NCBI RefSeq assembly: GCF_019464535.1
Contig: NZ_CP080507.1
Span: 3,360,001 to 3,392,000, forward strand
Direction: 5' to 3'
Length of the DNA: 32,000 nucleotides
Origin: Horticoccus luteus
Lineage (GTDB): Bacteria > Verrucomicrobiota > Verrucomicrobiia > Opitutales > Opitutaceae
Shown: positions 10,771 to 32,000 of the stretch, piece by piece
Layout of the letters: every line of letters begins with the position of its first letter
How positions within the stretch are numbered: the first letter of the stretch is position 1
The notes under the pieces: generated by a model
The model's database searches: none
What the model was told of the DNA's origin: nothing
What the model saw: the letters and a program-made list of their open reading frames with translations, nothing else
Made by a program: the position numbers and the translations under genes

Positions 10771-13700
10771 AGGCGTCGGTCGCGACGCTGCGAACGGTGA
10801 TTGAGACGTTTGTGACGGTGAGGGCGTTGTCTTCGACGAGGCTGATGCCCGCGCTGCCGGCGCTGGCGGCGAGCGTGTCGAGGCCGACTTCGAGAGGATT
10901 GGCGGAAGTGCCGATGCCGGTGCCGGCAACGAGGCGGGCGGCGCTGGAGCTGATGTCTTGATAGGTGTCGCCCGCGTCGAAGATCGACCCGGCGCTCGCG
11001 GTCAACGTGACGGAGCCGGTGCCGGCTTGCACGCCGCCGAGCGTGATGTTCGTTGCAGCCAACATCCGGACGTTGCCATTGGAGGTCGCGACTTGCGCAT
11101 TGTCCGCGAAGGTGATCGCGCCGGTGCCCGCCACGACGTTCGCGTCGCCGCCGCTCGTCTTGAGATCAGCGGTGGGGTTGAAGGTGACGTTGGCTGCGCC
11201 GAGCACGGTGACGTCACCGGTGCCGCTGAGGATGTCGGTGTTAGCGGTGATCGAAGTGCCCGCCCCACCCGCCTGCACGAGAATGTTGCCGGAGCCGTTC
11301 GCGCTCAGCGCGACGTTGGCGATGCCGCCCGTGCCATCGGAGAGCGTGATGTCGCCCGCGAGCGTGTGGAGGACGATGCTGCCATTGCCGGCGGTCACCA
11401 AGTCGGACAGCGTCGTGGTGGTGGTCAACGTGGTGGCGGTCGTGGCGTCAGCGGCCACGCGGTTGGTCGAGAACGTCGTGACGGTGTCGACGGTGATCGC
11501 GGTCGATTCGAGGAGATTGATGGCGGACCCGCTCCCACCCGTCGTCGTCTGGGCGGCGACGGTGACGAGTTCGGTCTCGATGGCGTTGTCCACGCCGGAG
11601 CCGACGAGGCCGATGGAGGTCTTCGCCTGGAGGCGCGCGGTGCGGCCGAAAATATTCACCTCGGTGGCGGCGCGCACTTTGTTGTCGGTGATGGAACCGG
11701 CGGTCGCGGTGACACCAACACTGCCCCAGGTGGCCTGGCTGATCAGAGTCGAGCCGGCGCGGTCGGTGTTGCGGCGTGCATCGAGGACGCCGAGGGTAAC
11801 GTCGACGGCCGCGGTGAAGGTGATGTTGGCGCCATCGGTCTGTGCGGTGAGCGTGGAGGCCTGGCTGATGCTGCGGGTAACGGCCTCGACGTCGATCGTG
11901 CCAGGCGTGGCAGCAACGATGACGTTGCCGGTGCCGGCGAACACGACATCGCGGCCACCGCGCACGGTGATATTGCCGTTGCCCGAGAGGACCTGCGCGT
12001 TGACGAGGACATCAGTCGAGGTGCTCTTCGCTTCGATGAGAATATTGCCGCTGCCGTTCGCGCTGATGGCGGCAGAGGCGAGGCCGCCCGAGCCTTCGTT
12101 CAACGTGATCGTGCCCGCGAGGGTTTGCAGAATGATGCTGCCATTACCGGCGGTGACCAGGTCGGAGAGCGTCGCGGTCGTGGTGGCGGCGGTCGAGACG
12201 GTGGCATCGGAGCCGACGCGATTCGTCGAGAAGGAAGCGACGGTGTCGACGGCGAGGGCGGTCGATTCGAGGAGGTTGATGGCGGACCCCACGCCACCGG
12301 TCGTCGTCTGCGCGGCGACGGTGGCGAGTTCGGTTTCGATGGCGTTATCAACGCCGGAGCCGACGAGGCCGATGCTGGTCTTCGCGGCGAGACGGGCGCC
12401 GGCCGCGTAAACGTTAACGGTCGAGGCGGCGCGGGCTTTGTTATCCGTGATCGAGCCGGCGGTGGCGGTGACGGCGACATTGCCCCAAGTGGCTTGATTC
12501 GTGAGGGTGGAGCCGGCGCGATCGGTGTTCTTCCGGGCGTCGACGACGCCGAGCTTTACGTCCACCGCCGCGGAGAGAGAGATGTTGGCGCCGTCGGTCT
12601 GCGCGGTGAGCGTCGAAGCTTGGTCGATCGTCCCGGTTTGCGCGGCGACATCGATGGTGCCGGGGGCGGCGAGGACGATGACGTTGCCGGTCGCAGCGAA
12701 GGTAACGTTGCGCTGGGCGAGGATCGAAATGTTACCGGAGGCGGACTTGATCGCGGCGTTGACCAACACGTCAGTCGCGGCCCCGAGCGCCTGCACGAGC
12801 ACGTTGCCGGATCCGGCGGCGGAGATCGCGGTGCCGGCGACGAGGGCGCCGTCGTTCAAAGTGATGGTGCCGGCCGTCGTGCGGATCACGATCGAACCGG
12901 TGCCGGTGCTGGTGACGTCGCTCTTGGTGACCGGCGATGTGTTCACCGAGCTACCGTCGGTTTGGACTTCGGCGATGGCGAAGACCACGGTGGAAACGGT
13001 GAGGGCATCATCTTCCAAGAGGTAAGCGCCACCCGCGCCGGTTTCGGCGGTGAAGGTGCCGATCGTGGTTTCGAACGCGTTGGCGGAAGTGCCGAAGCCG
13101 CCGTTGAGCGCGGAGACACGAAGCGAAGCGGCGACGACGTCTTTCGCGAGCTCACCTGCATCGAGGACCGAGGCCGAAGACGAGAAGAGCTCGACGAAGC
13201 CGCTGCCGGCGTTGAGGCCGGTGACGGTGACATTGCCGTTGGCGCGGTAGTCGATGTTGCCGCCGGCGGTGGTGGCGGTCGTGTCGGCCGCCATCGTGAT
13301 CGTGCCCGTGATGGCCTTGACGCTGATCGCACCGGTGCCGGAGCTGACCAGCAAGTCGCCGCCAGAATTTTGGGCAATGTTGCCGGCCGCGTAGAGGGAG
13401 ATGTTGCCGCTGCCGGAAACGACATCGGAACTGAAGACGACATCTGCGCCCGTCGATTGGAGCAGGACGTTGCCGGCGCCGTTGGCGCTGACGCCGAAGG
13501 TGTTCGTCGGCGTGCCGTCGGTGACGGTGATCGTGCCTGCCGCGACGAGAACGATGCTGCCGCCGGCGGAGGTGACGAGATCGCTCTGATCGGAAACGAC
13601 GAGGTCGCTGGTGAGCGCGGTGGCGGCGACGCGCTGGACGGTCACACCAACGGTGCCGACGGTAATCGCATCGGTCTCGGCAAGCCTGATGCCACCGGCG

Positions 13701-16700
13701 CCCGCGGAGGCGCTGAGAGTGCCGACCGCGATTTCCAAGGGGTTAACCGTGCCACCAAGCGCGCCGATTGCGTTGGCGGCTTTCAAGCGGAGGAACGTCG
13801 CGGACACATCGGCGCCACCCACATCGCCCTGGTCGGTGATGGAGCCGGTGTTCGCCGTGATGCTGGCGGTGCCAGCCGTCGTGACGCCGCCGAGGAGGAC
13901 GTTAACACCAGCCCACACGCGGATGCCGCCGGTGCCGGTGCCAACGGAGAAGCGGCTGTTGTCATCCTGCGTGATGCTCCCGGCGGTCGCTTCGAGATCG
14001 AGCGAGCCAGTCGCAGCGGAGACGACGTCGGCGCCAGCAGCGAACGTGAGGCTGCCGGCGGCGAGCACGGTGACGTTGCCGGAGGCGGCGCGGATATCGG
14101 CGTTTGTGTTGGCAGTGATATTACCGGTGGTCGCTTGGACGAGGATGTTGCCGGCTCCTTGAGCGTCGACGCTGCGGCCATCGGCGTCCGCGCCGTCGGA
14201 CAGCGTGATCGTGCCGCCGGCCACGAGGACGAGATTGCCGGCACCGGTCGCGGTGAGATCGGACAGCGTGCGCGTGTTGGCGGAAGGCGGCGTAACGGCG
14301 TCGAGGCCCACGCGGTTGACAGCGACGGTGACGGTGTTGACGGCGACGGCGTCGGTTTCCGCGATGAACAGGCCCGCGCTGCCGGCGACCTGAGCGGCGA
14401 TGGTGTCGACGCTGGTTTCGATCGGGTTGGTCGACTGGCCGACATTGGCGCCGGCGAAGAGGTAGAGGCTGGCGGCAGTCACATCGACGGCGCCGGAATC
14501 GGCGAGATCGAGGATGCTGCCCGCGGTGGCGACCAAGCCGACGGCGCCAGTGCCTGCCGTGATCGCGCCCAATGTGATCGCCCCCGTGGTGGCTTCGAAG
14601 AGAACGTGGCCGTTGTTCGTCGCGGCGGTGGCGGTCAGATCCATCGTGATCGCCCCCGCAGCGAGGACGTCGATGGTCTTGCCGGCGCCTTGAGTCTGGA
14701 GATTGCCTCCGGCGTTCTGCACGACGTCGTCCGCAGAGCTCAACGCGAGATTGCCGCCGGTGCTCACCACGAGCGCATTGAGGATAAGGTTGGCGTCGCT
14801 CGCGGTGCCTTCGACGGTCTCGCCGGTGCGGAGGACGAGATTACCCGCGGCGCTGATGCCGGTGGCGGGCGTGACAATGCCGCCGTTGACGGTGAGCGTG
14901 CCGCTGACAGTCGAGACGACGATGGCGCCGGTGCTGACGAGGTCTTCCTGTGCCTCGTCGGTCGTGGCGTTCGTGGAGAGCGTAACGCCGTCCAAGGCGA
15001 CGCGATTGACGGCGACGTCGGCGACGGCGTCGATGATGAGGTTATCGGTTTCGCTGAGGAACAGGCCACCGGTCCCGACCGCGGCGGTCAGCGTCGTGAT
15101 GGTCGTCTGCAAGGCCGCCGAGTTCGTGCCGACGCCACCGGCCACCGAAGTGGTTTCGAGACGGAGATTCGCGGCGACGACGTCGATGTCGCTCGTGCCG
15201 CTGTCGGTGATATTCGCGGCCTTCAGGGAAACGGACGCGTTGCCGGCATTGAGGTTGCCGACGGTCATGGTGCCAGTCGCGAGGTAACGGATGTTGGCGT
15301 TGGCGGCGGTGGCGCTGTTGCCGTCGAACATCGCGATATTGCCGCCGGCGCTGACGTCGATCGTGCCACCGGTCGTGGAAATGTCGCCGGCGGTATTGGC
15401 AGCGCCGCCCTGCGTGATGTCAGCGGTGGCGACGAGGCTGAGGTTGCCGGTTGCGAGCGTGATGGCGCTTTGGATCGAAAGGCTGCCGGTGACCGAGAGG
15501 AGCACGTTGCCTGCGCCCGTGACGTTGATGGCCTGGGCGTTGGAATCGCCGTCGTTCAGCGTGAGGTTGCCGCCGGTAACGAGGACCAGGGCGCCGCCGG
15601 CTGTGGCGGTGAGATCGGACTGGCTTGCGACGGTGGTGCTCGGGGCGGTCGCCGTGGAGTCGACGCGGTTGATGGAAACGCTGACGCTGCCGATCGCGAG
15701 CGCATCGGTTTCGTCGATGAAGGTGCCGCCGGTGCCCGCGCTGCTGGTAGTCAGAGTCGCAACGGTTGTTTCGAGGTGGTCAGTGCCCGTGCCGATGTTG
15801 GAGCCGGCGAAGACGACCAAGCCGCTAGCGGTGACGTCGACGGCCGAGGTGTCGGCCGCGACATCGAGAATCGAGCCAAGGATGGCGATGAGGGCGACGT
15901 TGGCCGTGCCGGCGTTTACTTCGCCGAGGTTGATGTTGCCAGTCGCCGCGCGGTAGAGAATGGCGCCGTTGTTGGTGACCGCGGTGGCGCCGTCGCTCAT
16001 ATCGATGAGTCCGGCGGCGAGAACGTCGATGGTGCTGCCGGAAGCGGCGGTCTGCAGATCGCCGTTGGCCGTCTGTATGACGTCGTCCGTGGAGTTGAGA
16101 CTGATGTTGCCGGCGGTGCTGAGGACGAGGGCGTTAAGGGTGAGGCTGGCGCTCGTGCCTTCGATGAGTTCTCCGGTCTGGAGGAGGATGTTGCCCGTGG
16201 CGCTGATGCCATTGGTGTCGGTGCCGCCGTTGACCGTGATGGCGCCGTCGAGCGTGCGAAGGACGATCGCGCCGGTGCTCACGAGGTCGGACTGGTCGGC
16301 GTCGGTCGTGCCGACGGTGGTCAGCGTGGTGCCATCGGTGCTCACGCGGTTGACGGCGACGGCGGCGACGGTGGCGATGATGATGTCGTTGGCTTCGGTG
16401 AGGAAGAGGCCGGCGGTGCCGACGAGCGCGGAGAGAGTGCCAACGGAAATCTGGAGCGGGCTCGCGCCTGTGCCGACGCCACCGGCGAGAGCGGTCGTCT
16501 CGAGGCGGAGGTTCGCGGCGGTGACGTCCGTATCGGTGGTGCCGGAGTCGGTGATGGTGGTCGCCTTCAGGCTGACGGAGGCGGTGCCGGCGTTGATGTC
16601 GCCGATCGAAAGGGCATCGCCGGAGAAGTAGCGGATGTTGGCGTTGGTCGTCGTGGCGCTGTTGCCATCGAACATCGTGATCGTGGTGCCGGCCTGGACG

Positions 16701-19700
16701 TCGATGGTGCCGCCGGTGGTGACGAGGTCGCCTTTCGTATTGGCCGCCCCACCCTGCGTGATGCTCGTAGTCGCGACCAAGCTGAGGTGGCCCGTGGCGG
16801 TCGAGACGCTAGCTTGGAGAGAAATACTGCCGGTGACGTCGAGACGGATGTTGCCGGTGCCGGTGACCTTGATGCCTTCGTTGTCGCCGTCGCCATCGTT
16901 GACCGTCAGCGCGCCACCCACGATGAGGACGATCGAACCGCCGCCGCTGGCTTCAACGTCAGCCTGCGTGAAGGAAGGTGTGCTGGCCACGGCGCTGGTC
17001 GCGTCGATGCGGTTGACGGCGACCGTGACGGAGTCGACCACGAGGCCGTTGGTCTCGGTGATGAACGTGCCGCCGGTGCCGCCCGAGCGGCTGGAAAGCG
17101 TGGTGATGGTCGTCTCGATCGGATTCGCAGCGGAGCCGATGTCGCCGGTGGCGGTGATGAGCAGGCCCGAAGCGGCGATGTCGACCGCGGAAGAATCGGC
17201 ATGGTCAACGATCGAGCCGGTGACGAAGAGGGCGACGTTGCCCGTGGTCGAGATTGACGAGAGAGTCAGCGAACCACCGCTCGTGTAACGGATGTTGCCA
17301 CTGCCGCTGGTGGCATCGTTGCCTTCGAACATCGTGACGGCGGAGCCTGCGACCACGTCGATCGTGCCGGTGCCGGTCGTGGCGATATCGCCATCGGTGT
17401 TGACCGCCCCACCCTGCGTGATCGAGCCCGTGACGTTGAGGCTGATGCTGCCGGTGCCGCTGTGCACTTGCGCTTGAACGGAGAGACTGCCGGCGACGCC
17501 GAGGTAGATGTTGCCCGAGCCGTTGGCACTCACGGATTCGTGGTCGGCATCGCCGTCGTTCAACGTCAGTGAGCCCGCGAGGGTTTGCAGGACGATGGCG
17601 CCGTTTCCGGCGGTGGTGACAACGTCGCTGAGACTCGCGAGATCTTGCTGCGTGGCGGTCGCGCCGGCGGTGGCGAGGCCGGAGACGCGGTTGACCGCCA
17701 CCTGGCCGACCGTGTCGATCGTAAGCGCGGTGCTGTCGACGAGATTGATGCCGCCCGTCGCGGCCTGCGCGGCGAGCGTGAGGACTTCGGTTTCAAGGGC
17801 GTTGGCCGTGCCGGCGCCGAGGGTGCCGATGCTGGAGCCCGCGACGAGGCGGGCTTGATTGGCGAAGAGAATGATGTCGGTCGCGACGGCCGCCTTCGCG
17901 TCCGTGATCGCACCGCTGCCGGCGATGATGCTCAGGTTGCCCCAACTCGCTTGATTCGTGAGGAGGCCGTCGCCGCGGTTTGTCGCGTCGCGAGCATCAA
18001 GGCGCGCGAGGACGACGTTGGTGCCGGCCTGATAGCGGATGTTCTGACTGACGGTTTGAGCGAGCGTGAAGGTCGAGCCGTTGACGGCCATCGTGATGGC
18101 GCCGGCGGTGGCAAGCACATCGATCGTGCCGGCGCCGGAGGTGATGACGTCACCCTTCACCGTGGCGCTGACGAAGTTTTGATTAACGTTGTTCGCCGCG
18201 ATGATGCTGATGCTGCCGGTGCCGCTTTGCACGGTGGCGTTGAGCGAAATATTCCGGGCGGTGCCGCCGGTCTTGCCCGCTTCGAGGCGGATGTTGCCAC
18301 TGCCGTTGGCACTGACGCCCACGCCGCCGGCCGGCGAGGTGCCGTCGTTGACGGTGATGCTGCCGTCGATGGTGCGTAGGATGATGTTGCCGTTGCTCGC
18401 GGCGGTCGTGAGGTCGCTCTGCGCGGCGTCGGTCGTGCCACCGACGACGCTCGCAGTGCCATCGGTCGCGACGCGTTTGACGGAGACGGCGACGTCGTCG
18501 ATCGCCAGGTCGGAGCTTTCGAGAAGATTGATCGCACCGGCACCGGCACGGGCGGTGAGCGTGGCGCCTTCGGTTTCGATCGGATTCGGCGTCGCACCGT
18601 CAACGCCGAGATAGGTGGCGGCGTTAAGACGAATGCCGTTGCCGTAAATGTTGACGGCCGTGCCGCCCGCGGCCTTCGCGTCGCTGATGTGGCCGGTGAC
18701 GGCGAGGACGCTGATGCTGCCCCAAGTGTTCTGGGTCGAGAGCGCCGGATTGGACGCGCGGGCATCGAGAACACCGAGGATCACGTCAACGTTGGCCTTG
18801 TAACGGATGTTCTGGCTGAGGACCTGGCTGGCGGTCGTCGAATTCATCGTGATCGAGCCGTTGGTGGCTTCGACGTCGAGCGTGCCGGTGCCGGTCAAGG
18901 TGATCGTGCCGCCGGCGTTCTGGTTCACATTGCCAGAAGCGAGGATGGTGACGCTGCCGGTGGTCGCGGAGATAGCCGCACCGAGAGTTATATCCGCGGT
19001 GGCGGCGACGTGCTGCGACTGCAGGAGGACGTTGCCGACGGCACCCGTGACGGCGACCGCGCCGGACACGTTGAGCGAGCCATCGATCGTGCGCACGACG
19101 ACGGAGCCTGCGGCCCCGCCCGAGGTGATGCCGCCCGCGGCGATCGTGAGATCATCGGCTTCGAGCAGGTAGATGCCGCCGTTGGTGGTGTTGGTCGCGG
19201 TGACGCTGGCGACCTGGGTATTGAAATCGTCCGCAGAGCTGCCGATGCCCGCCGCGGCGCTGAGGACGAGCGTGGTCGTGCTGCCGCGAACGTTGGTCGC
19301 TTCGCCGGTGAGATTGTCAGAGATCGCACCCGCGGTGGACGTCAACGTGACGGTGGCCGGCGAGTTGATGATGCTGACCTGCAGGTTGGACGAGGCGGTG
19401 TAGCTGATCGAGTTAGTCGCCTGCGTGATGACGCCGCTCGTCATGACGAGGGTGCCGGCGGCGGCGTTGAACGTGATCGTATTGGCGCCGGTGGTGACGT
19501 TGGCGCCTTGCATGATGCCGCCCGCGGAAGAGGTGGCGGAGATCGCGCCGCTGGTGCTGCTGATGACGGCGGTGTTGGAGAGAGTGCCGGTCGAGCTGAG
19601 GGTGATGCCGCCCGTGGTCGAAGTGACGACTTGGTTGACGGCAAGGGTCTTGGCCGTGCCGGCCGCGCCGATCGTGATGTTGCCGGTGCCGACTGTCGTG

Positions 19701-22700
19701 ACGCCCGTGCCGGAGCCGAGGACGGTGATGTTGCCGGCCTCGGTGGTGATCGAAATGTTGCCGCTGCCAGCGGCCGAAGTCTGGCTGACGCCCGTCACCT
19801 GGAGGTCGGCGCCGGCGGCGAGTTCGTTGATGATGAGGTTGCCGCTGCCGCGATTGACGGCGGTGACGGTCGTGACGGAGGTGAAGCCGAGGTTGATGCC
19901 GGTCTGCGCCGAGACGTTGAGGTCGGCCGCGTTGATGGGCTCGGACGAAACGCCGTCGGCCGCCGGGTCGTTGAGTTGCGAGATCTGGCCGTTGGCGGAG
20001 TAGAGAACGACGTTGTAGAGAGTCGAACCGGCGGTGCTCAGACGGGCGTTGAGCGTGTTGTTGACGGTGATATTGTTGACGGCATCGAGCGTGAGGTTGT
20101 TCGAGACTTGGAAGACATAGTTGGAATCCGTGAAATCGGACACCTCGATGCTGCCGCCGTAAACGTAGAGCGGATCCTTGAAGCTGACGGAGGATGGCCC
20201 GATGGCACCGATGCGGACGGCACCCGTGCCCGACGCGTGGCCGGAGGTGGCGCGGCCGATGTAGATGCCGGTAAAGCCACCCTTCAGGGCACGAACATCT
20301 GCGTTGGACAGCGTGAACCCGGAGCCGTCGGCGAAGGGCGGATCGGCGATATCCATGGCACGGTTGCTGGTGTAGGGCATCAACGTGATCGAACCGGTGC
20401 CCACGACGGAGTTGGTGGCGCCTTGGAAGTCGATCTCGTCAGACTCGATGGAAATATTGCCGCCGCCATTCACGGTGAGGCCCTTCTCAAAGACGACGTG
20501 GGCGGCGCCGGTGATGGTGAGTTTGCCGTTCGAAATCGTGACCGCTTTGCTAAAGGTAACGGTGCCGCTGGCGTTGATGATGACGTCGCCGTTCATCGTG
20601 AGCGTATCGTCGAAGGAGACGTCTTTGGCGTTGGTGACCTTGAGCCCTTCGAGCGGATCGGTGCCGCCGACGGGACCCTTGAACGTCACGTTGCCATTCG
20701 GAGCGCTGACGATGAGCGAGTCGTCGCCCGGCGAGCTGTCGCCGTCGAGGAAGATGCCGGTGTTGCCGCCGAACTGCACATCGCCGTTTTGCGAGGTGAC
20801 GGTGCGGTTTTGGCCGGAGATGATCACGGAGTCGTTGAACGTGTTGTTCCCCGGCATCGTGATGTCGGCGGAGATCGTCGTGGTGTGGCCGGAACCGTAA
20901 ATGTAGAGCGAGGCGTTGTCGGTGCCGACGAGGTTGTTATAGATGAACACTTCGCCGCCGGCCATCGGGTTGCGCACGATGAGCGGGTCGTCAAACGTGA
21001 TGACGCCCGTGGGATTCGCCTTGTCACCGAGGTAGACGACATGGGCGCCGTCGACGCTGCCGATTTCGATTTGCTGGAATCCGTTCTGCAGGAGCCCGAG
21101 CGCGGTGTTGTCGAGGTGGAACGCGGTGCCGATCGCGCTGAGGAAATCGCCGATGTAGATGGGCGCCGTGCTTTGACGCGGGTGCAAGGTAAGGACGCCG
21201 CCGGGGCTGCTCACCGTGCTGGTGATGTTAACGTTGTCCGCGATGAGGCTGACGTTGTCGCCACCTGCATCGATTGGCGACGCGATGGTCTGGGTGCCGG
21301 TCAGGGAAACGACGCCGGTCGTGCCGCCCTTCGAGCCGCTGCCGCCGGAATCGTTTTGCACGATGATGCCGGCGAGGGCGAAGACGTAGACGGGGAGGCG
21401 GTTCGAGCTGGAGGTCGTGACCTTCGCGGCGTTGATGACGAGAGCGAGCGGGCTGTAGGTAAAGCCGGCGACGGAATCGCCGATCTTGTCGCGGGCGCGC
21501 AAGGTGATGGTGCCGAGCGTGGTGTTGAGATACGGCCCATCGGCGGAGCGGACGGCGGTGCCGTTGGCAAATCCGTGAACGAGGATTTCGCTCAGCGTCA
21601 TGTTGGCGGTGAGGATTTCACCGGTATTGAGATCGACCGTCGCCACGCCTTGGCGGAGAACCCAATCGGTCTCCGGATTGAAGCTGCCGCCGGGCAACCG
21701 CAGCCAGCCCACGACGCTGGCGTTGTTGATGATCGATCCTTGCGAAGCGACGAGCGTGATGTCGCCCGCACCGGCGACCGCGATGCCGTCGGAGAGCGTG
21801 ATGTCGCCGTTGTCGGTCGTGAGGCTGACGCCGCCGCCAGTCGTGACGATCGCGTAGTTGAGGGCGATGAAGGAGTCGGCGCCGCCGGCGTAGAGGGAAA
21901 TGTTGCCGGTCTTCGCGTGGATGCCGGTGCCGCCGATGGTGATCGCGCCATTGGCCGTCTCGATCGAGGTGGTGCCGGAACCGTCCTGAATGATTTGTGC
22001 GAGGATGAGTGCGTCAGCCTCGCGCAGCGCGATGGCGCCATGATGATTATAGAGCGAGAGCGAAGCGACGTTGGTCTTGATCGCGCCGGCGGTGCCGGAA
22101 CCGATGCCGTTATCCGCGCTGAGCACAAGCTTCGCCCCGGTCGCGGTGATCTCGGTGCCGCTATCGCTCGCAGCCAGAATCGCGCCGCCGGTGCTGGTGA
22201 TGACGAAGTCCGCAGGGTTGGTGGTGGTGAGCTTGCCGAGCGTGATGTCGCCTGCGGCGCTGAGAGAGATGAGGCCGCTGCCCGCTTTGACGTTGGTGCC
22301 GGCGGCCATCGTGAGGGCGCCGGTGCCGCCGTTGAACGTCACATCGCCGGCGGTCGTGGTGATCGCGGCCGCGGCGGAGAGATTGAGACCGGCGGCGCCG
22401 AGGAGGCTGATGTCACCGCTCGCGCTGGTCAGAGGCTGCGTCAGTGAGAGTGCGCCCGCGGTCGTCTGGAGATAAATGGCGGCGCTGCCCGTGGTGGTGA
22501 CGGCACCGCTGACGGTCATCGCTCCGCCGGACGTGACGTGGACCGCGGCGTTGCTGGAACTGACGAGGCCGGTGACGGCAACGCCATCGGCTTCGGCGAT
22601 CGTGATCGCGCCACCGGCGGTGACGTTGAGCGTATCGGCTTCGAGGGTGGCGTTGACGGTCGTATGCGCGTTGAGCGTCACGCCGGCGGCGCTGTCGAGA

Positions 22701-25700
22701 TGGTTGATGGAGACGAGGCCGTTGGTGGAGGTGATCGAAACGTCGCCCGTCGTGCCGGCGATATGATCGATGTTGATATTGCCGTCGGCGAGAATGGTGA
22801 GGTTGCCGCCCGCCATCGTGATGGTGCCGATGGAGATGTTGCCGGTTTGGATGATGGTGAGGTTGCCCGTCGAGGTCATCGTGACGGAGAGCGAGCCGAC
22901 GGCGGTCTTGACGGTGAGATCCTGGCCGGCCTGCAAGGTCAACGTGCCGGCGGTGATCGTGCTGCCGAGGGTGATGCCACCGGTCGTGCCGGCGGTGAGG
23001 CTGACCGAGCCGCTGCTGCCGACATTGAGGGTCGAGACGACAATGAGGTCCGTGCCAGCCGTGAGGCTGATGTTCTCGCCACCGTTGGTCGGGAGATTAA
23101 CGACCGAGAGGCTGCCGGCCACGCTCATCGTGAAGTCGCCCGGGGTGCGGGTCGGGAGCACGAGGACGTAATCGCCGGGGAGCGCGAGCGCGCTGCCGCC
23201 GGAGCTTTCGTCGGTGCGCGCGAGGACGGTGAACGGGGTGTTGTCGGCCTCGGACTCGAGGACAAGGCGGCGATTAGCGGAGTCGACGGTGACGGTGATC
23301 GCCTCGCCGGCTTCGATGGACGTTTTGAGCGAAGCGAGAATGCTCGCCCAATTCGCACCGGCCGCGGCGGTGGCCGTGTAGGTGTGGGAGCCGTTGATGA
23401 CGACGTAGAACTCGTAGCCAGTGCCGAACTTGTTGGCGAAATCGATCTGAGTCTTCTGCTTCGCAACCTGGCCTGCGGCTTGAGTCGGCGTGGACCCGTT
23501 GGCGGTCACGCCGTTCTCGACCGGCGTGGTGGAAATCTGGGAGGCGGTGCCGAGGCTGGTGAACGTGGTGTTGTTCACCTTGGCGGTGAGCGTGAGCTTG
23601 CGGTTGGACGCGTCGACCGTCGCGGTGACGACATTACCGGCGTCGATCTTGGTCTTGAGTGCGCCGAGGACCGAAGCCCAGTCTGCCGTGACCCCGCCGG
23701 AACCAATGCTGACTTGGTAAGTGGTGCTGTTGACTTGAACGGTGTAGGTGTAGCCGGCGGCGAGTTGGGACGCGTCGTATTGAATCACGTTCACCTCGGC
23801 GCGACTGAAGCCTGCGAGTTGCGTCGGCGCGGTCGGAAGTCCGGTGATCGCGCCGGCCAGGGTCGCGGCGACGGCGTTGACGACGAACGCGGTGTTCACC
23901 GCGCCTTGGAGCGTGAGCTTCTTATTGGCCGCATCGACGGTCACGGTGATCGTCGGATTGAGGGTGTGGATGAACGTGTTGAGGCCGCCCAGGACATCGG
24001 CCCAGGCCGCAGTCGCGACGGAAACGGCACGGGCGGTGGCGGTGTAGCGATGTTGCGGGTCGGTGTTGATGGAGGCACCGAGGCCGGTCGCGGCAGTGGC
24101 GAGAGAATCACCCGAAGCCGGAGTCCATGAGTATTTGTCGCCGTCGATCGAGATGGAATACTTGTTGGCGGAGCTGATGGTGAGCCCCGTGAGGCTGATG
24201 ATGCGCACGGCGCCGGGCTCGGGTGCGCTGATGGCCACGCCAGACAAACCGGCGAGGTTGGTCACGGCGGTGCCGGTGGTGGTGTCGGTGACCGAGAAGC
24301 GTATGTCGGACAAACTCGCGCCGGTAATGGTGATGTATTCGTTGTCGCCGACGCTGACGGTGTAAGGAGTGCCGTTGACGAAGACGGTGTAGGCCGTGGT
24401 CGAACCGACGGTGCCGCCGAACACAACATCGTTCTTCTGCGGCAATGTCGCGGTCGCGACCTGACTCGGATTGGTGCCATCCTGACTGACGGAGGCGAGC
24501 GCCGTGACGAAGGCGCCGTCCACGCCAAAGGCGGTGTTAATGGCGGTGGCCTCGAGCAGCATTGAGTGCGTCGTAGAGTCCGGCGTGACGGTCACAGCTT
24601 CGCCAGCTTCGATAAGGGTCTTCAGACCCGCGAGGACTGAACTCCAAGCGGCCGTCACCGTCGCCGAACGCGTGGTGGCGTCGTAGGTGGCGCTGGCGTT
24701 GACCTTGCTCGCCAGGTCCGAGGCGAGCTGGGCGATCGTTTCGCCGGACGTGGCCGTGTGCGTGAAGGCGCTGCTGCCGACGGTGAGCGTGTAGGTGGCG
24801 CCGTTGGTGACGGTGAGGCCGCTGAGGTTCACGAGGCGGTAGCCGTGACCGTCCGTGGTGACGCTGAGGGAGGCTTGACCGGCGTCGTAGTTTTGCGCGG
24901 CGGTGGCCGTCGCCGTGATGGCGGCGGTGCCCGCGCCGGCGCTGATGGTGATCTTGTTGGTGGCGGCGGTGGCCGTGTAGGTGGCGTTGGCGTCGATCAG
25001 ACCGGCGAGGGACGTGGCGATATCGGCGAGGGTTTTTCCGGCTGCCGCCACGTAGTCGAAGTCGGTGCCAGCCACCGTCACGCGGTAAGTGCCGCCGGTG
25101 ATGACCGTGACGCCGGTAAGATCGATGGTGCGGGCATCCCCCGCCGTGGTGCCGGCGGCGTTGATGGCAATTCCGGAGCTACCGGCGATGGCCTGGATGG
25201 TGGTGACGCCGAGCCCGATGGCCGCGGTCGATGCGCCGGCGGTGATCGCAATGAGTTGGTTACTGCCGATGCGCACGGAGTAAGCGTGGCCATTGATCAG
25301 CACGGAGTAGAGGCCGTTGGAATCCGGCGTCGAGCTGCTGAACGTGACCGTGCTCTGCTGGTTGGCGTCGTGGCCGGCTTCGATCGTGGGGTAGCTGCCG
25401 TCGAGGGTGGGCGCGGAGACTGGAGCCAGAGTGACGAGATTCACGCTCACGGTGCCGACCGTGAACGGCGTGTTGGCGGCCCGCGCGGTGAGCGTGAGAG
25501 TGCGGCTGACGTTGAGTGAAACGTCGATCGATTCGCCTGCTTCGATCTTCGTTTTCAGGCCGCCCAGCACGGACGAGATTGTGGTATCGATGCCGTCGGA
25601 TCCCGCGGTAACGGCATAGGGGTTGCCGTTGAGGGTGACGGTGTAGGTGTAGCCGGTTTGGACGAGGCTGGAGAAACTGATGGTGCTCGACTGCGGCACA

Positions 25701-28700
25701 GAGGTGCCCGCGGCCGTGATCGGCGTGATCGTCGCTTGGGTGACGGTGCCGGCGGCGGCGAAGATGCCGGCCTGCGTGACGGTGCTGTTGGGATCGAGCG
25801 TGATGCCGCCGCTGGTCGCGGTGTATTTGAGTTCGAGCTCGTTGCCAGTGCCGACGATGGTGGGGTTCAGGATGATCTTTGGCGTGCTCGCGAGCGTGCC
25901 GCGGAGGGTGATGGTGTAGCCAAACACGTCGACGACGTCGTTGTCGTAAGCGCCCGAAGTGTCGTTGTCGTGGCCATTGCTGTCGGCGACGCGGCGTTCA
26001 TAGATCGTCCCGGAGGCGTCGATGATCACATTGCCGTGGAGTTTCTGGGCGCCGGCGATCGCGCCAGCCTCGACGTGGTCGAGGTAGAGATCGCCCGCCG
26101 CCTTGATCGTGATGTCGTCCCCGGCGCGGTCGGCGACGTTGTGCACTTCGCGCACATATTGCGTGCCACCGGAGGTAATCTGAATGCTGCCATCCTGCGC
26201 GATGACCGAATCCACGTAGAGGCCCGTGGCTTCGTTGATCTCGATGTTGCCGGTGGAGGTCGTGAGGGCGTTGAGGCGGTCGATCAGGGTGTTGAGCTGG
26301 ATGCCGTGCGCCGCGTTGACGTTCAGGATGTAGGCGATGAAGACGGACGCGCCATCGGAGACGATCGAGTCGGCGGTGATCGAGAGAACGCCGGACTGGG
26401 CCGCGTCGGCGGCGATGATGCCGCCGAGGACGGTGAGCGTCCCGGCGACGTTGAGCGTGACGTTGCGCGCCGGATCGTAAGCCGAGAGACCGCCGATGAA
26501 GCCCGAGAGCGTCTGGCTGCCGGTCAGCGTGACCGCGATATCAAGTTTCGCGCGCAGTTCAAAGTGACTGGCGGGAATCGTCGCGAGCTGGAGGTTGATG
26601 TAGCCGGAGGGCGCGGTGACGGTGGTGACGTTGCCTTGGCCGGCATTGTTGACGTCGACGGCGGTGGTGACCGGGTTGATGCCCTTCGCGGTAATCTTGA
26701 CGTTATTGATGGTGCTGCCGCTCGCCAGGATGCTGCCCTTGACGATGACGTCGGCACCGGAGGTGAGCTGGACGAGCGTGCTAGCGGTGATCGTGCCGTC
26801 GATGGAGATGGTCGAACCGGTATCGATGATCACGGTGCTCGACGAGATGTTGCCGGGGAGAAGCTGAGTCGCGGCGCCGTTCGGACGGAAGACGAGGTAG
26901 TTGCCGGCGTGGTATTCGGTGAGGTCCGGCCCGGTGAAGAACTTGTAGAGATCGACCACCGTCGCGGCCGAGAAGGCGACGCCGCGCGTGAAGGTGAGCG
27001 AGTCCGTGGAAACCTGCGTCTGGCCCACGATGGCTGCATTGCCAGCGCCGGCGGAAATCGTGACCGTCGCGCCGCTGCCCGTCGCCGTGTAGGTCGCGTC
27101 GGCGTCGATCAAGCTGGCGAGACCGGACACAATCTGCGGCAGCGTGTTGCCGGCGGCTGCGACGTAGTTGAACGCGGTGTTCCCAATGACCACGCGGTAG
27201 GTGGCACCGGTGACGACCGCGACGTCCGTGAAATTGACGGTGCGGGCATCGTTTGCGGTCGCACCGGTGGCGTTGACGAGGATGCCGCTGGAGCCGGCAA
27301 CCGATGGGGCGACGACGGTCACGCTGCCGGCCGCACTGGTGAGGCGAATGGTGTTGGCGCGCACCACGCCGTCTCCGGCAACGGTGAGATTGTTTTGGGC
27401 TTGGACGGCGACGGTGGTTGATCCGCCTGCGGCCGCAGACGAGACCGCTTTGGTGATCCGCAAGCCGACGTTGCTCTCCAGCGCGCCATCGGTCTCCGTC
27501 AGGTTGACGTCTCCGGCCGTCGTTGTGGCGGCCAGGCTGTTAGCGGCGATTTCCAGGTTCGTGATGCCTGTGCTGGCATTAAGCGTGATCACGTTGCCGA
27601 TCACATCGACCGCGGCGTCGTCGGCGGATTCGGTGATCTTTCCACCGGACGAGGTCAGGGTGACATTGCCGGCCGAAGTAAAGCTGGTGACGGCGTTACC
27701 GTTGAGGTCGGTGAGGACGGGCTTGTCGGCAGGAGTGGCCAAGTAGATGCCGGCATTGACGCGGCGCACCAGGATATCGCCGGCCGCGGTGATCGTGATG
27801 TTGTTGCCGGTCTGATTCGAATCGCTGTGCACGTCCACCAGTTCAACCGAGCCCGCCGCGGTGAGGTTCAAACTGCCATTCGCGATCGCAACGGAAGTCA
27901 AGACGAGCGGCAGAGACGTTTGCGTGAGAGTCACGTCGCCCGCTTTCGTGGTGGCGAGCGTAAGCGTGTTGGCCGCGAGCGCGAGGTTGACCGGACCGAA
28001 CGCTGCCACCGCGACGTCGTCGGCGGTGATCGTGCCGGTATGAGTGAGGGCGCCTTGCGCCGAGAGCACCACGTCGCCGCGACCACCGGCGGAAATTGTG
28101 CCGACGGCGATGTTGGCGGAGGCGGGATTCGGATTAGCGGTCGTCGGCACCACCATGTTGGCGGTGAGGCTGATGTCGTTGCTGTCGCTCGTGCCGAGTG
28201 TCTTGACCGAGGTCGCGGTGATGCTGCCAACGGTCGTCACAGCGATCGCCCCGTCGGCGGCGGTGATATTATCGAGCGCGATGTCGCCTTGATTGGTCAG
28301 GCTGATGTTGCCCGGAGCGGAGAGCGTGAGGTTTGCGTGAGCGACGCTGGTGTTGAACTCCAAGGAGCCTTCGGCGGATGCGGTCAGGAGGTTGCCGGTG
28401 ATGTAGCCCACAGTCTGCGTGATCGTGCCGGCGGCGGCGCCCAGGGTGACGTTGCCCGCATCGAGCGTGGAGCCGGTGAGCGTGATGTTGCCGCCCGCGA
28501 GGCCCGCCCGCAGCGTGAGGTTGCCGGCGGAGTTGGCGACGTTGGCGTCGAGAACGGCCAGAATGTTGCCGATGATGCTGCCGGACTTGCTGCTGCTTTC
28601 GCCCGCCAGGAGGCTGATCGAATGCGGCGCGGTGACGGAGCCGGTGAGCGTGACATTGCGGGCGGCGGTGGCACTGATCGTGCCATTGGTTCCGGCGGCG

Positions 28701-31700
28701 GTGACCTGACCGCCGAGCGAAAGATCGGTCCCGGCGGTGAGCGCGATGGTTCCGGCGACGGCGCTGGTTGTCAGATTGGCCGAACTGCCGATCGTGAGCG
28801 CACCACCGGCGGTGAGGGTAATGGCATTGGCGGCTTTCAGCTGCGAAATTGATTCGATTTCAGCGCCGGGAGCGATGGTGCCCTGCACTTGGAGCGAAGA
28901 ACCGGAGGTGATTGCGAGGGTGTCCGTGCCTGTCACCCAACCGCTGAGTTGGACGGCGCCGCCTGCGTTGATGGCGACGGACTTGCCAGCGATGGACTCA
29001 CCCGCGAAGGAACCCGAGAGGAAGGTGGCCGTGGTGTAGGTGACTGCGGTGACCGAAGTCGTCTCCGTGGTCGTGGTCGGAACATCCTGCCACAACGTGA
29101 TGTGGTCGGGCGGATCGTTGACCACGACTTGCTGCTGCGAGGTTTTGTAAACCGGACGGGATTGGTAGATATCCTGGGCCTGGGTCGTGAGAGTGTAGCT
29201 CAACTTGATCCGCTGATCGTAGATCTTATTGGCGTTCGACGTCATCTGGTAGCTGTAGTCGTGCTGCGTCTCAAAGACGTTACCGTAAACGATCAGGCTC
29301 GAGATTTCGTCGTTCCAGTGGTCGCCGATCCACGGATTCGTGGAGTAATCGGTGCGGCTCTCACCGCCGTAGTTGATGTCCCAGTAAAGCACCACTTTCC
29401 GCGTGGTGTCGCCGTTGAAGCTGAGGGAGCTATACTCGTCGTTATGTGAACTCCCGACCCATGACGTGCCGCCGTTGGTGAAGCGGTCGCCGTAACCGCC
29501 AAAATTGATGTGTTGATACATCGTTACGTCCCCGCCGCCTTGACGATAGCCGACGAGAACGTGCGAGCGCGAAGAATCGGTCAACTGGGACAAGGACGCC
29601 GTATGAAGCGTGAGTTCGTCGTAATAGGTCGGAGACGAATAGATGAAATTCTGCCCCAGTCCGTTGTTGATCGAATTTTGCGCCGGGGTCGGGGTCTTCC
29701 ACGTCCACTGGGGATCATAGGTCCGCGTCGGCGTAATCGTGTTTGCACTGGTGCTGCCCGGGGCGACGCCCGTGATCGCGTAGTGCCGTACACCGGTGCC
29801 ATCGAGATAGGAAACCGACCAGCGGGCGGCGCTGTTGTCGTCGTCCCAACCTGTTTGAATGTTAATGCCGAGTACATTCACATACGCGTTCTGATAGGTC
29901 GACTTGTCCTGCCGATAGTACACGTTGCCGACATCGGTGTAGGTGCCGACCACTCCCCCGCTCGGAGTCGTGGGGTTGTTGGCGTCGATGGTAACCCAAG
30001 TCCCGTCGTTGCGGCCATCGGCAGTGGTGTCGCCCGTCAGGTATTGCGCTGGCGCCGAAGTGACCACGTTGGCGATGTCTTTCTGGGCACCGGACGGCAT
30101 GAGGATGTATTTGTCCTTCAGCCCCTTGAGCGGCAGATAATAAACGACGAGCGAGTTACTCGCCCAACTCGGCGTGTACGGTGCTGTCGAGGCAACGCCG
30201 CTGAGGGTTTTATGGTTAACCGGATTGCTGTAGCTGAAGCTGTACAGCCGCATGTAACCAGTGGAGTTGAGCACGGCCTGGCGCTGCGCGTCGTTAAGAC
30301 CGGTGAAATCGAGGTAGCTGTCGGACTTGTAGTCGGAGGTGACCGACGTGGCGGTGCGGCCGAGGTGATCCTCATCGCCGGCATTGGACCAATTGATCTG
30401 ACTATTGAAGTAGTCGACGCCTTCGATGAGGATCGCTTTGTATTTCGAGCCATCCGGCGCGTTCGGGTTATAGTAACCGATCTGCTCCAGACTGATGTCC
30501 ATCGTCTGATACTCCGAGCCCACCTTGACTTGGGTGGTGCCGATTTCCTCGGTGATCGTGGTGTATTCCAAGTGTGACTTGGGCACGACAATTTCACCGA
30601 TGGCTACCTTGGTTGAACCGGTGACTTTGGTGACGGACTGCGTGGTCGTATCGTAAACTGGCACCAACACGGTGCGCTCGCCCGTGACGCTGGCGTCGGC
30701 GGTCAGGATGACATCCCCACCCGCCCGCATCTTGAGTGCGCCGCCGGCCGTCACCGTGCCTTGCCCATTCACTTGAATGGTGCCGCCATGCAAATCGCTG
30801 GTCGCAATCGTGCCTTCAAGCTGGGCGCGCGTCTGCAGCGTGTTGACGCCCGCGTTCATATCCAAGGTGCCGGCGGAATTCACCAACCCGTCGACGTAGA
30901 GAAGGGAGTTCGCATTGATCAACATCCGCCCGGTCGTCGCCGTGACCTTTACGATGCCTTTGACGTAGATGACGTCGGCCGCAAGGTGCACCAGCGTATC
31001 GCCGATAATGATCGACTCGGGATGCGTGAGATCGACCTTGCCGTTGAGGAGGATGCTTTGCCGACCGTGGAAATAGTTGTCGGCCCCGCTGGCGGTTGCG
31101 TAAACGTGGCTGCCGGCGACGAGATTGATGCTGCCACCTTCGATCGCCACGTGGTCGCGGATATCGATCGTGCTGGTGATAATGACGTCGCCGCCGGTCG
31201 AATTGATCGTCAGCGAGGAAACCTTCGCGGCGGACGCAGGATTGCTCGGGTCGACCAACTGGCCGAGTACACCTTTAACCAGAATCGTATCGACGCCCGT
31301 GAGCGTGATGCTGCCCCCCGCCGCCGTGTCGACCGTGCCGCCGGTCAGTCGGTCGCCGTTGGCATCGAAGGTGAACTCATTAATATAGATCGAGAGGTGG
31401 GTGCCGTCAGTGCCCCCGGTGATGGAAACTTGATCGTAGGCGGAAACGAGATTGTCGATCAGGACGAGAGAATTGGAGAAGAGCGTTAGATCCGAACCGA
31501 TGTTCGCGGCCTGCACGACGCCTGAGATCTGAATATCGCCCGTGGTGCGGACATCGATCGACCCACCGGTGATAGTGTTGGCATCGGTCCATTGGCCCTG
31601 ACCTGACCGATCAAGCAGAATTGAGCTCAGATCCAGCACCGCGAAGCCGATCCCGTTCGCATCCATGCCGGATTGAATCTGGATGGCCCCTGAGGCCGCG

Positions 31701-32000
31701 AGGTAGCCGCCGGCAGGCACAACAGCGAAATTGGCGTCCAAGCCGTTGCCGCCAAGAATCACGGATTGTGTGCTGGTGATATAGAGATTCGAACCGGCAC
31801 CGGTCCACGAAACATCGGTGGTGTCGCTGTCAAAATCCGAGCCCGCGATCACGCGCCCAACGATGACAATACTCTGGGCTTCAAGGCGGATCTGGCTGGC
31901 GGCCCCCGAGGAGAGGATGGAGGCGTCCGCGCCGATTTGCAGCGCGCCGGCGGCGGTGATCGCGACCGCGGAATTGCCCTCCAACGTCGCGCCCATTGGA
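1..32000 (-). CDS. Internal fragment (10,666 complete codons, open at both window edges) of one giant beta-helical repeat protein. Probably a secreted fibre or adhesin of the beta-strand-repeat / filamentous-haemagglutinin-like class.
   Basis: I hand-translated more than 60 sixty-nt rows spread across the window: 31999-31740, 31500-31380, 30720-28920, 27300-27000, 26940-26880, 25980-25920, 25680-24480, 24180-24060, 22500-22440, 21720-21060, 20400-20220, many rows between 17100 and 11460, and 300-1. All read in the same phase and give coherent beta-strand repeat sequence, for example PMGATLEGNSAVAITAAGALQIG and GNVRLLAATDITLGGIQAGTGSVTLTATAGSILDGG. Third codon positions are mostly C or G. An ATG lies at 31996-31994 in this phase, yet the track lists no minus ORF in this phase. 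That is only possible if no stop follows it inside the window. The long + ORFs start at 11, 5195, 5909, 9083, 10379, 10958, 17585, 18689, 22538, 24758, 25658, 27827, 28889, 29510 and 30761. All are 2 mod 3, which is the in-phase antisense of this frame. Confidence 0.92.
10771..11283 (-). repeat. Degenerate proximal copy of the 648-bp unit, marking the transition from the diverged modules to the homogenised array.
   Basis: It stays in register with the array but has many substitutions. Its protein reads ..TADLKTSGGDANVVAGTGAITFADNAQVATSNGNVRMLAATNITLGGVQAGTGSVTLTASAGSIFDAGDTYQDISSSAARLVAGTGIGTSANPLEVGLDTLAASAGSAGISLVEDNALTVTNVSITVRSVATD. Confidence 0.7.
11284..12802 (-). repeat. Two tandem copies of a 759-bp (253-codon) variant of the super-module.
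   Basis: Matching anchors lie at 11284, 12043 and 12802 (..gttgccgg[ac][gt]cc..), and the hallmark segments at 11511 and 12270 are both 759 bp apart. The two proteins align along their whole length. An example pair is TLTAQTDGANITFTAAVDVTLGVLDARRNTDRAGSTLISQATWGSVGVTATAGSITDNKVRAA against TLTAQTDGANISLSAAVDVKLGVVDARKNTDRAGSTLTNQATWGNVAVTATAGSITDNKARAA. Confidence 0.85.
14600..17290 (-). repeat. Two copies of a 1,344-bp (448-codon) di-module. Type A and type B super-modules alternate.
   Basis: The anchor gtgccgccggtgcc sits at 15723 and at 17067, and the anchor aggaa[cg]aggcc sits at 15057 and at 16401. Both pairs are exactly 1,344 bp apart. The proteins align, for example GGAANTKGDLVTTGGTIDVQAGTTITMFDGNSATTTNANIRYFSG against GGAANTAGDISTTGGTIDVSAGGNIAMFDGNSATAANANIRYLAT. 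A partial third copy continues towards about 14300. Confidence 0.8.
20190..21200 (-). other. Two related units of the form short beta-helix block followed by LTL.P....I.IG ... L..L..GF..I.IG. They resemble modules I recall from filamentous-haemagglutinin-family giant proteins.
   Basis: Direct translation of 21195-21020 gives LTLHPRQSTAPIYIGDFLSAIGTAFHLDNTALGLLQNGFQQIEIGSVDGAHVVYLGD. Direct translation of 20400-20200 gives GSITLMPYTSNRAMDIADPPFADGSGFTLSNADVRALKGGFTGIYIGRATSGHASGTG. The family assignment is from memory only and has not been searched. Confidence 0.5.
21750..23150 (-). other. Regular beta-helix segment with short coils of about 18-22 aa.
   Basis: Translation gives repeats such as NISLTAGTDLIVVSTLNVGSSGSVSLTAGTTGGITLGSTITAGTLTLQAGQDLTV. 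Row 22441-22500 was read directly as VTTTGSAAIYLQTTAGALSL. Confidence 0.7.
23200..25700 (-). other. Array of about 8 small (60-115 aa) strand-strand-helix-strand modules of at least two subtypes. Family not recognised.
   Basis: Rows 25680-24480 were translated directly, plus spot rows at 24000-23941, 23700-23641 and 23400-23341. The helix-type motif [WI]..[VI]L..L[KN]T.I recurs five times: ISSVLGGLKTKIEAG near 25585, AAWSSVLAGLKTLIEAG near 24640, AAWADVLGGLNTFIHT near 24000, ADWASVLGALKTKIDAG near 23680, and ANWASILASLKTSIEAG near 23350. Each is preceded by Y.Y.V.[VL]NG..Y.V and followed by [IV]TVTVD..N..L.L.....NT.F.V. The second subtype is exemplified by GDARTIDLTGVTVITGGTYRVTVAGTDFDYVAAAGKTLADIATSLAGLIDANATYTATAATNKITISAGAGTAAI at 25150-24880. 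Confidence 0.75.
27010..27290 (-). other. Isolated copy of the second alpha/beta module subtype, embedded between beta-helix segments.
   Basis: Direct translation gives GILVNATGATANDARTVNFTDVAVVTGATYRVVIGNTAFNYVAAAGNTLPQIVSGLASLIDADATYTATGSGATVTISAGAGNAAIVGQT. By eye it shares roughly 60 percent identity with the module at 25150-24880. The DNA is also visibly homologous. Confidence 0.8.
27330..28985 (-). other. Beta-helix segment between the globular insertion and the first alpha/beta module.
   Basis: Translation gives coils such as NAITLTAGGALTIGSSANLTTSAVAGTIALTAGTDLSLGGQVTAAGTNGTISATAARNVTLTGS. The hallmark IGNVITLNASTGITNLEIAAN was read directly at 27600-27541. Confidence 0.7.
28990..30670 (-). 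other. Non-repetitive globular insertion of about 560 aa that interrupts the beta-helix. It is lower in GC and rich in Tyr, Trp, Asn, Gln and Lys.
   Basis: The region was translated row by row with no stop or frame change. It begins ..TGERTVLVPVYDTTTQSVTKVTGSTKVAIGEIVVPKSHLEYTTITEEIGTTQVKVGSEYQTMDISLEQIGYYNPNAPDGSKYKAILIEGVDYFNSQINWSNAGDEDHLG.. It continues ..YYRQDKSTYQNAYVNVLGINIQTGWDDDNSAARWSVSYLDGTGVRHYAITG.. and ends ..YKTSQQQVVVNDPPDHITLWQDVPTTTTETTSVTAVTYTTATFLSGSFAGESIAGK. Spot GC counts are 31/60 in row 29581 and 33/60 in row 29641, against 43/60 in row 1-60 of the array. Confidence 0.85.
29285..29530 (-). other. Beta-gamma-crystallin domain with two Greek-key motifs and both Ca-binding-type N-D-x-x-S-S motifs.
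   Basis: Codon-by-codon translation gives VTMYQHINFGGYGDRFTNGGTSWVGSSHNDEYSSLSFNGDTTRKVVLYWDINYGGESRTDYSTNPWIGDHWNDEISSLIVYG. The signature Y-x4-[FY]-x-G occurs twice, as YQHINFGG and YWDINYGG. Each is followed at the expected distance by N-D-E-[YI]-S-S-L-x-[FV]. Confidence 0.85.
30680..32000 (-). other. Irregular beta-helix at the N-terminal side. The frame continues past the right window edge.
   Basis: Direct translation of the following rows gives these sequences. 31999-31900: PMGATLEGNSAVAITAAGALQIGADASILSSGAASQIRLEA. 31800-31741: GAGSNLYITSTQSVILGGNG. 31500-31381: IGSDLTLFSNSLVLIDNLVSAYDQVSITGGTDGTHLSIYI. 30720-30661: GGDVILTADASVTGERTVLV. Confidence 0.7.

Follow-up and report, generated by a model that had tools for sequence, protein, structure and literature searches.

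Flavollin of Flavobacterium johnsoniae (3hzb) and clostrillin of Clostridium beijerinckii (3i9h) are single beta-gamma-crystallin domains of ~85 residues, each built from two Greek keys. We found a domain of the same size and build in a stretch of 32,000 nucleotides from Horticoccus luteus (contig NZ_CP080507.1, positions 3,360,001 to 3,392,000), called the window hereafter, whose minus strand encodes a fragment of one giant protein. The domain lies at 29285..29536 (-), i.e. amino acids (aa) 822-905 of that fragment, where aa i begins at nucleotide (nt) 31999-3(i-1). It shares with flavollin and clostrillin the Y/F-x4-Y/F-x-G hairpins and both N-D-x-x-S/T-S motifs, and these two proteins are its best matches in sequence and in fold. 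In contrast to them, it belongs to a protein of more than 10,666 aa, where ~820 visible residues precede it and a larger insert surrounds it, and has Glu at both 3rd motif positions and Ser at both 5th positions, where wild-type clostrillin has Thr. It is a genuine single beta-gamma-crystallin domain and, judged by its motifs, belongs to the microbial Ca2+-binding type.

The domain type itself is known and its embedding in a large bacterial protein has a precedent in vibrillin; the Yersinia crystallin is also embedded in a large bacterial protein. What is less ordinary here is that the host exceeds 10,666 aa and resists annotation, and that the slot occupied by the domain holds an unrelated module in related lineages. 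Vibrillin is likewise one crystallin domain with two canonical NDxxSS motifs (NDTLSS and NDVISS) inside a large Vibrio protein, and it binds Ca2+ and gains stability thereby (PMC3551895). Its host protein differs from ours, with no detectable relationship outside the domain, and vibrillin has atypical S-type motifs and self-associates. Hahellin, caulollin and the Yersinia crystallin share the canonical motifs and are disordered without Ca2+ (bioRxiv 10.1101/475277), which makes them the model for a domain that is unfolded at low Ca2+ and folded outside the cell. Hahellin (2kp5) is among both the fold and the profile matches of our domain, whose sequence is nevertheless closer to the ordered flavollin and clostrillin than to these three. 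Protein S of Myxococcus and spherulin 3a of Physarum belong to the same superfamily, have the same Ca2+ motif and are matched by profile and by fold, but they are free-standing stress or spore-coat proteins (Protein S with two domains), unlike the embedded domain of the window.

The original prediction had placed a canonical Ca2+-binding crystallin domain at 29285-29530 (aa 824-905). The minus-strand translation of 29530-29285 reads DVTMYQHINFGGYGDRFTNGGTSWVGSSHNDEYSSLSFNGDTTRKVVLYWDINYGGESRTDYSTNPWIGDHWNDEISSLIVY, an exact match to the peptides quoted there, and the location stood, while the profile alignment extends the domain by six bases to 29536. Greek-key motif 1 spans 29417..29527 (-) (aa 825-861, VTMYQHINFGG...HNDEYSSLSF) and Greek-key motif 2 spans 29288..29395 (-) (aa 869-904, VVLYWDINYGG...WNDEISSLIV). 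Both carry the Y-x4-[FY]-x-G hairpin that had been claimed for them, Y828-QHIN-F-G-G and Y872-WDIN-Y-G-G, so that the broader superfamily signature Y/F/W-x4-Y/F-x-G also occurs twice, in YQHINFGG (aa 828-835) and YWDINYGG (aa 872-879). Both N/D-N/D-x-x-S/T-S motifs, in the canonical definition (PMC3551895), are present as well, and each is a predicted Ca2+-binding motif: N853-D-E-Y-S-S858 at 29426..29443 (-), which aligns with the NDxxS/TS of clostrillin, and N896-D-E-I-S-S901 at 29297..29314 (-), whose reverse complement reads AAC GAC GAA ATC TCG AGC. The motif has no further copy anywhere in the 10,666 residues. Across the 41-42 relatives aligned, the column of the conserved structural Ser is nearly invariant at S858 and invariant at S901.

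A lone N/D-N/D-x-x-S/T-S motif is not rare in a protein rich in N, D, S and T, and the pattern of one hairpin plus one motif has an expected count of 0.013 per whole-protein shuffle. One could hence read the site as a cluster of motifs brought together by chance in an aromatic-rich region, with no domain at all. The tandem double pattern, however, appeared neither when the protein was shuffled 2,000 times nor when the aromatic-rich insert was shuffled by itself 20,000 times (0/22,000), and chance is excluded as the source of the paired pattern. With the significant full-length matches to solved crystallins, the confident predicted fold and the conservation of the domain in orthologues, all given below, the probability left to a chance cluster is vanishingly small.

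We searched the domain with phmmer against 1.84 billion protein representatives and obtained 365 relatives at expectation values (E) of 1e-3 or lower, 69 of them at 1e-10 or lower; many of the 365 carry several tandem copies of the domain. Against the PDB, the single sequence matched flavollin (3hzb) end to end at 7.3e-6, archaeal M-crystallin entries at 1.4e-4 and clostrillin at 2e-4, and spherulin 3a weakly (E = 0.08). The designed 'Pizza' beta-propeller proteins stood at the top of this search and were rejected as artefacts, because their scores add up weak matches to three identical repeats (each with an independent E-value of ~0.7-2), and they disappear when a profile is used. The profile of the relatives matched clostrillin at 1.6e-22, flavollin at 8.5e-20, spherulin 3a at 4e-17, Protein S at 8.6e-17 and the lens gamma-crystallins at 1e-13 to 1e-14. 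An independent profile, built without the window and without two of its orthologues (P0024 and P0133), scored aa 822-905 at 83.6 bits and matched nothing else in the 10,666 aa, so the giant protein has one crystallin domain rather than several in its visible part. A word-indexed protein search with the domain alone gave no matches, and the same search with the insert or the insert profile gave three short fragments, which say nothing on the conservation of the domain because they end before the crystallin slot or are frameshifted.

The only Pfam model passed by the single sequence is Inhibitor_I36, at 22.4-22.5 bits against a cut-off of 21.1, which raises the question of a metalloprotease inhibitor of the SMPI type. 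The match covers only part of that model (positions 15-51 or 15-67 of 69). In the alignment of 42 domain sequences, Inhibitor_I36 matches 41, 38 of which are also matched by Crystall (Crystall 38/42, Crystall_3 33/42), and we take the model to report the shared fold and not an inhibitor function. SMPI has disulfide bonds at its reactive site and close to it. No such disulfide-constrained reactive-site loop is found here, as there are no cysteines in the domain or in the 10,666 residues, and the closest solved relatives are Ca2+-binding crystallins. Since the domain is cysteine-free and the I36 model generic, an SMPI-type role is highly improbable.

The predicted structure points in the same direction. 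AlphaFold2, run on a 41-sequence alignment of the domain with the Pigmentiphaga soli row (L001) left out, gave a domain model with a predicted local distance difference test score (pLDDT) of 90.6 and a predicted template modelling score of 0.81, consisting of seven strands in two similar halves. In the model, the two Greek keys intercalate into one wedge-shaped beta-sandwich domain. Searched against the PDB with Foldseek, the model superposes on microbial beta-gamma-crystallins, as had been expected of it: the best matches are flavollin and clostrillin (3hzb, 3i9h, 3so0), with template modelling (TM) scores of 0.77-0.83 and root-mean-square deviations of 2.0-2.3 A over the whole domain (85-89 aligned columns, 29-32% identity). 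Further matches are spherulin 3a, the Ciona crystallin, M-crystallin, the N-domain of Protein S, the Neurospora APP domain, hahellin, nitrollin and lens crystallins, and the best 50 Foldseek matches are beta-gamma-crystallins without exception (50/50). The original prediction is thus borne out on both sides, by significant profile matches and by paired Greek keys in the predicted fold.

The Ca2+ sites were compared with those of hahellin, where four protein ligands bind each ion. Two are main-chain carbonyls, contributed by the first hairpin and by residue 3 of the motif; the other two are side chains, those of the Ser/Thr at residue 5 and of the N/D at residue 2 of the partner motif. The site is disabled when Arg or Lys occupies the 5th position (bioRxiv 10.1101/475277). 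By alignment, all ligand side chains are present in the window (D854, S857, D897 and S900), and neither 5th position is a disabling Arg or Lys. By homology with hahellin and clostrillin, each site would combine two main-chain carbonyls, one from the hairpin of one motif and one from E855 or E898, with the Ser hydroxyl at S857 or S900 and the partner-motif Asp side chain (D897 or D854). The two sites would lie on top of the beta-sandwich. We compared six orthologous giant proteins with the domain in the same position, i.e. those of the window, Pigmentiphaga soli (L001), P0024 (contig JBDSTZ010000175), P0133 and, from metagenome contigs, L007 and L008. In 12 of the 12 motifs the 2nd D and the 5th S/T, which are the ligand positions, are kept, and both motifs are fully canonical in three of the six proteins. 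Domains with the NDxxSS motif bind Ca2+, with reported affinities in the family of 4-100 uM (PMC3551895). Both sites of the window domain are therefore predicted to bind Ca2+, a prediction strengthened by the ligand conservation and by these published domains with the same motif.

Our analysis suggests, as the most probable explanation, that a Ca2+-type beta-gamma-crystallin occupies an exchangeable insert slot, is loaded with Ca2+ outside the cell and stabilises a node of the giant protein. In the extracellular milieu the domain would be loaded with two ions, which may clamp or cross-link the two motifs and so rigidify or stabilise that node. At the low Ca2+ of the cytoplasm it may lose stability or unfold, as do hahellin, caulollin and the Yersinia crystallin (10.1101/475277). 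Such lability would ease export of the unfolded chain, with Ca2+ driving its folding once outside. Stabilisation or folding after export would be the most likely role. Ca2+ is known to rigidify the extracellular domains of the giant adhesins SiiE and MpIBP (PMC5466336, PMC5380327). More broadly, SiiE, MpIBP/MpAFP and MhLap (PMC5466336, PMC5380327, PMC6650083) resemble what is proposed for our protein in being very large, repeat-rich exported proteins whose domains are stiffened by Ca2+ and whose repetitive extender is interrupted by ligand-binding modules. They are built of BIg domains with C-terminal RTX repeats, whereas Pfam scans of the repetitive parts of the window protein yielded neither BIg nor any other domain; RTX repeats may still occur at its C-terminus, beyond the window. 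We regard the resemblance as a functional analogy and do not claim membership among these adhesins. The giant protein is presumably a secreted or surface protein, for it is cysteine-free, huge, repeat-rich and analogous to SiiE and MpIBP. A repeat-rich giant context with zero cysteines is typical of exported proteins of Gram-negative bacteria.

Several observations count against this explanation. The Pfam profile named in the original prediction, Crystall (PF00030), gave no match in a scan of the single sequence, and Crystall_3 (PF08964) reached 18-18.5 bits, under its cut-off of 27.3; in Pfam the expected support came from Inhibitor_I36 alone. We ascribe this shortfall to the limited sensitivity of scanning one sequence by itself; it does not speak against homology. 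The two Crystall thresholds are the only exceptions among the testable sequence and fold properties of the superfamily and of its Ca2+ subtype, all others of which the domain displays. The AlphaFold model is not fully independent of homology, because its alignment consists of crystallin-like sequences. The Ser, not Thr, at both 5th positions is a further point, as work on the T41S/T82S form of clostrillin reportedly ties Ser at this position to weaker binding; T41S/T82S clostrillin structures are among the Foldseek matches. Both ends of the giant protein lie outside the window, so its secretion and location are derived indirectly. The lower-GC (guanine plus cytosine) relatives described below do without a crystallin in the slot, and the domain is accordingly not essential to the scaffold. 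Lastly, in three of the six orthologues (L007, L008 and P0133) the Ser at the non-ligand 6th position is changed to Ala in one or both motifs, so strict canonicity is not required in the family; P0133 also has one motif with Asn changed to Ala at the 1st position.

The tolerated changes at the 6th and 1st positions would also be expected if the domain were a crystallin fold serving as a Ca2+-independent structural spacer, with relic motifs and an intrinsic stability like that of the lens crystallins or nitrollin. Some members of the superfamily indeed bind no Ca2+ (10.1101/475277), and nitrollin is among the fold matches. We consider a spacer improbable, as both motifs of the window are fully canonical, their 5th positions are free of Arg and Lys, and published domains with such motifs bind Ca2+ (PMC3551895). 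Retained Ca2+ binding is favoured over relic motifs because all 12 pairs of ligand positions have been kept in the orthologues despite the changes at non-ligand positions.

The crystallin domain adjoins a globular region without a family match, and repetitive sequence flanks the whole on both sides, in agreement with the context first described for it. From the composition profile and collinear homologues, we delimited an aromatic- and charge-rich globular insert of ~570 residues at 28997..30700 (-) (aa 434-1001), bordered on both sides by repetitive sequence rich in Ala, Thr, Gly, Ser and Leu. The scaffold of the insert is collinear, at 33-50% identity, in Pigmentiphaga soli, Oceanospirillum sanctuarii, metagenome-assembled genomes of Rhodoferax, Polaromonas and Halarcobacter, and several metagenome contigs. 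A profile of the insert matched crystallins alone in the PDB, and the rest of the insert had no match there.

Among the relatives of known GC, the crystallin is found only in the high-GC ones (66-69% GC), namely the window, L001, L006/P0024, L007 and L008; P0133 also carries it. In the lower-GC relatives (32-58% GC; L002-L005, L009 and L010), the same flanks enclose an unrelated W/Y-rich segment of ~120 aa, located at aa ~3690-3840 in L002, ~3960-4050 in L004 and ~3820-3930 in L005, and present also in L009/L010. The flanks read ...Y.D.L...T.SL... upstream and ...Y.Y.W.S....IYD.RI.L.Y..T.Q.... downstream of the slot. We rejected the idea that the W/Y-rich segment is a degenerate crystallin, for it has no profile match even with the HMMER filters off and no Pfam family. 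The slot thus looks like a cassette exchange between conserved flanks. In the flanks, the relatives with a crystallin share 41-46% identity with the window and the others 33-35%, with which a single replacement event in a betaproteobacterial lineage would fit. The replacement does not appear recent, because the third-position GC of the domain (0.79) matches that of its neighbours in the insert (0.76-0.81), and no signal of a recent horizontal acquisition of the cassette was found.

An exchangeable slot between conserved flanks is also what one would expect of a specificity-determining module. The crystallin might then serve chiefly for ligand binding or adhesion, as the variable 'business end' of the insert, and attach the protein in a Ca2+-dependent manner to a surface, a glycan or another cell, and a different cassette in other lineages would mean a different specificity. 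The edges of the insert are compatible with such a role. They are predicted as long extended beta-strands at 30470..30670 (-) (aa 444-510, local pLDDT ~68-85) on the N-terminal side and at 29027..29176 (-) (aa 942-991, local pLDDT ~78-83) on the C-terminal side, where they include the conserved IYDQRIKLSY...PVY...W..VP segment. Local confidence over the two edges is fair (pLDDT ~70-88). Together the strands may build a beta-ribbon stalk on which the globular part stands out from the main axis. This is a low-confidence hint, as the whole-insert AlphaFold model, made from a six-sequence alignment, has a pLDDT of 46.7 and does not fold even the crystallin part; we took only the edge strands from it and left it out of the fold search. 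The protein that contains flavollin, the closest solved relative, was deposited under the name 'carbohydrate binding protein', and the beta-gamma-crystallin-like domains of Dictyostelium DdCAD-1 act in Ca2+-dependent cell adhesion. On the other hand, no binding site is identifiable in the domain, most characterised microbial crystallin domains have no ligand known besides Ca2+, and other, better conserved segments of the insert could equally bind. A primarily adhesive role is therefore the less likely option, although it is compatible with Ca2+ stabilisation and does not exclude it. With a similarly low likelihood, we speculate that the insert is the specificity head of an undescribed family of giant repetitive surface proteins in Proteobacteria and relatives, in which the crystallin is a Ca2+-gated adhesive or recognition cassette and more than a stabiliser. 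If so, the slot would swap a Ca2+-type crystallin, in a high-GC betaproteobacterial clade, for the unrelated W/Y-rich module elsewhere.

No other part of the giant protein, which otherwise resists annotation, offers a recognisable handle for experiments. Like vibrillin, the domain is a microbial beta-gamma-crystallin inside a very large protein, and its exchange as a cassette bears on how such domains spread and on the function of the insert, while knowledge of the domain family itself is left unchanged by this example.

The entire window is one minus-strand frame without stop codons, 31999..2, of 10,666 codons and open at both ends (giant open reading frame at 2..31999 (-)), encoding a fragment of an Ala/Thr/Gly/Ser-rich, cysteine-free protein. 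Third-position GC along it is 0.76-0.93, which identifies it as the true coding frame. Two plus-strand open reading frames over the crystallin site (28889..29449 and 29510..30577) are antisense shadows in DNA of 66% GC; the long ones elsewhere on the plus strand (11-5182, 5909-9070, 10958-17257 and 18689-22447) are likewise shadows of the giant gene in high-GC DNA and not genes. Some plus-strand open reading frames are nested with a 648-nt period pattern. In P. soli, at least 3,333 residues separate the homologous insert from where the fetched locus ends upstream, and at least 9,665 residues follow the insert in the window protein, so the complete protein probably exceeds 13,000 aa.

A tandem array occupies 2..11269 (-) (aa 6911-10666), outside the crystallin domain, with at least 17 copies of a 216-aa (648-nt) unit that are ~95% identical. 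Tandem Repeats Finder missed it because the period is above 500, the longest that program handles. A weaker 448-aa periodicity was seen around aa 5000-6500. Scans of the repetitive protein with Pfam and NCBIfam found no credible family, just weak repeat-summed matches, and a PDB sequence search with the repetitive parts found no homologue. The Pfam matches to Reo_sigmaC (57.6 bits) and OsmC (46.2 bits) fall in the near-identical array, at 2-8500 (-), where no stretch is significant on its own; most likely they arise by adding up weak matches over the repeats and are not real domains, and we rejected them together with the NR(II) match. The GGxGxD motif occurs as a single copy in the 10,666 aa, the C-terminus of the protein lying outside the window. 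The label beta-solenoid 'fibre' for the repetitive protein is putative and derives from its composition.

Besides the crystallin slot, a second element of variable copy number was observed in the insert. A short module, D-Y-x-N-x-x-I-x-W...F-x-x-L-x-D-A-Q-x-x-A-V-x-x-x-x-G-Y, is present once in the window insert (~30290-30420 (-), aa ~527-570), in several tandem copies in the Halarcobacter, Rhodoferax and Polaromonas relatives (L003, L004 and L005), and again further upstream in P0024, at its start.

The P. soli domain shows an unusual relationship to that of the window. Its first Greek-key motif, LYWDINYGG...WIGDHWNDEASS (L001, nt ~11150-11450), is far closer to motif 2 of the window than to motif 1 (score 126 versus 84), while its motif 2 is not closest to motif 1 of the window (39 versus 62). 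The latter scores do not support a clean circular permutation; more probably, one motif of the domain was duplicated or converted by the other. Public gene calls for the relatives of the giant protein are fragmentary, and the database proteins P0133 and P0153 end in Arg/Pro/Ser-rich junk, which points to frameshifts or assembly errors in these fragments of giant genes.

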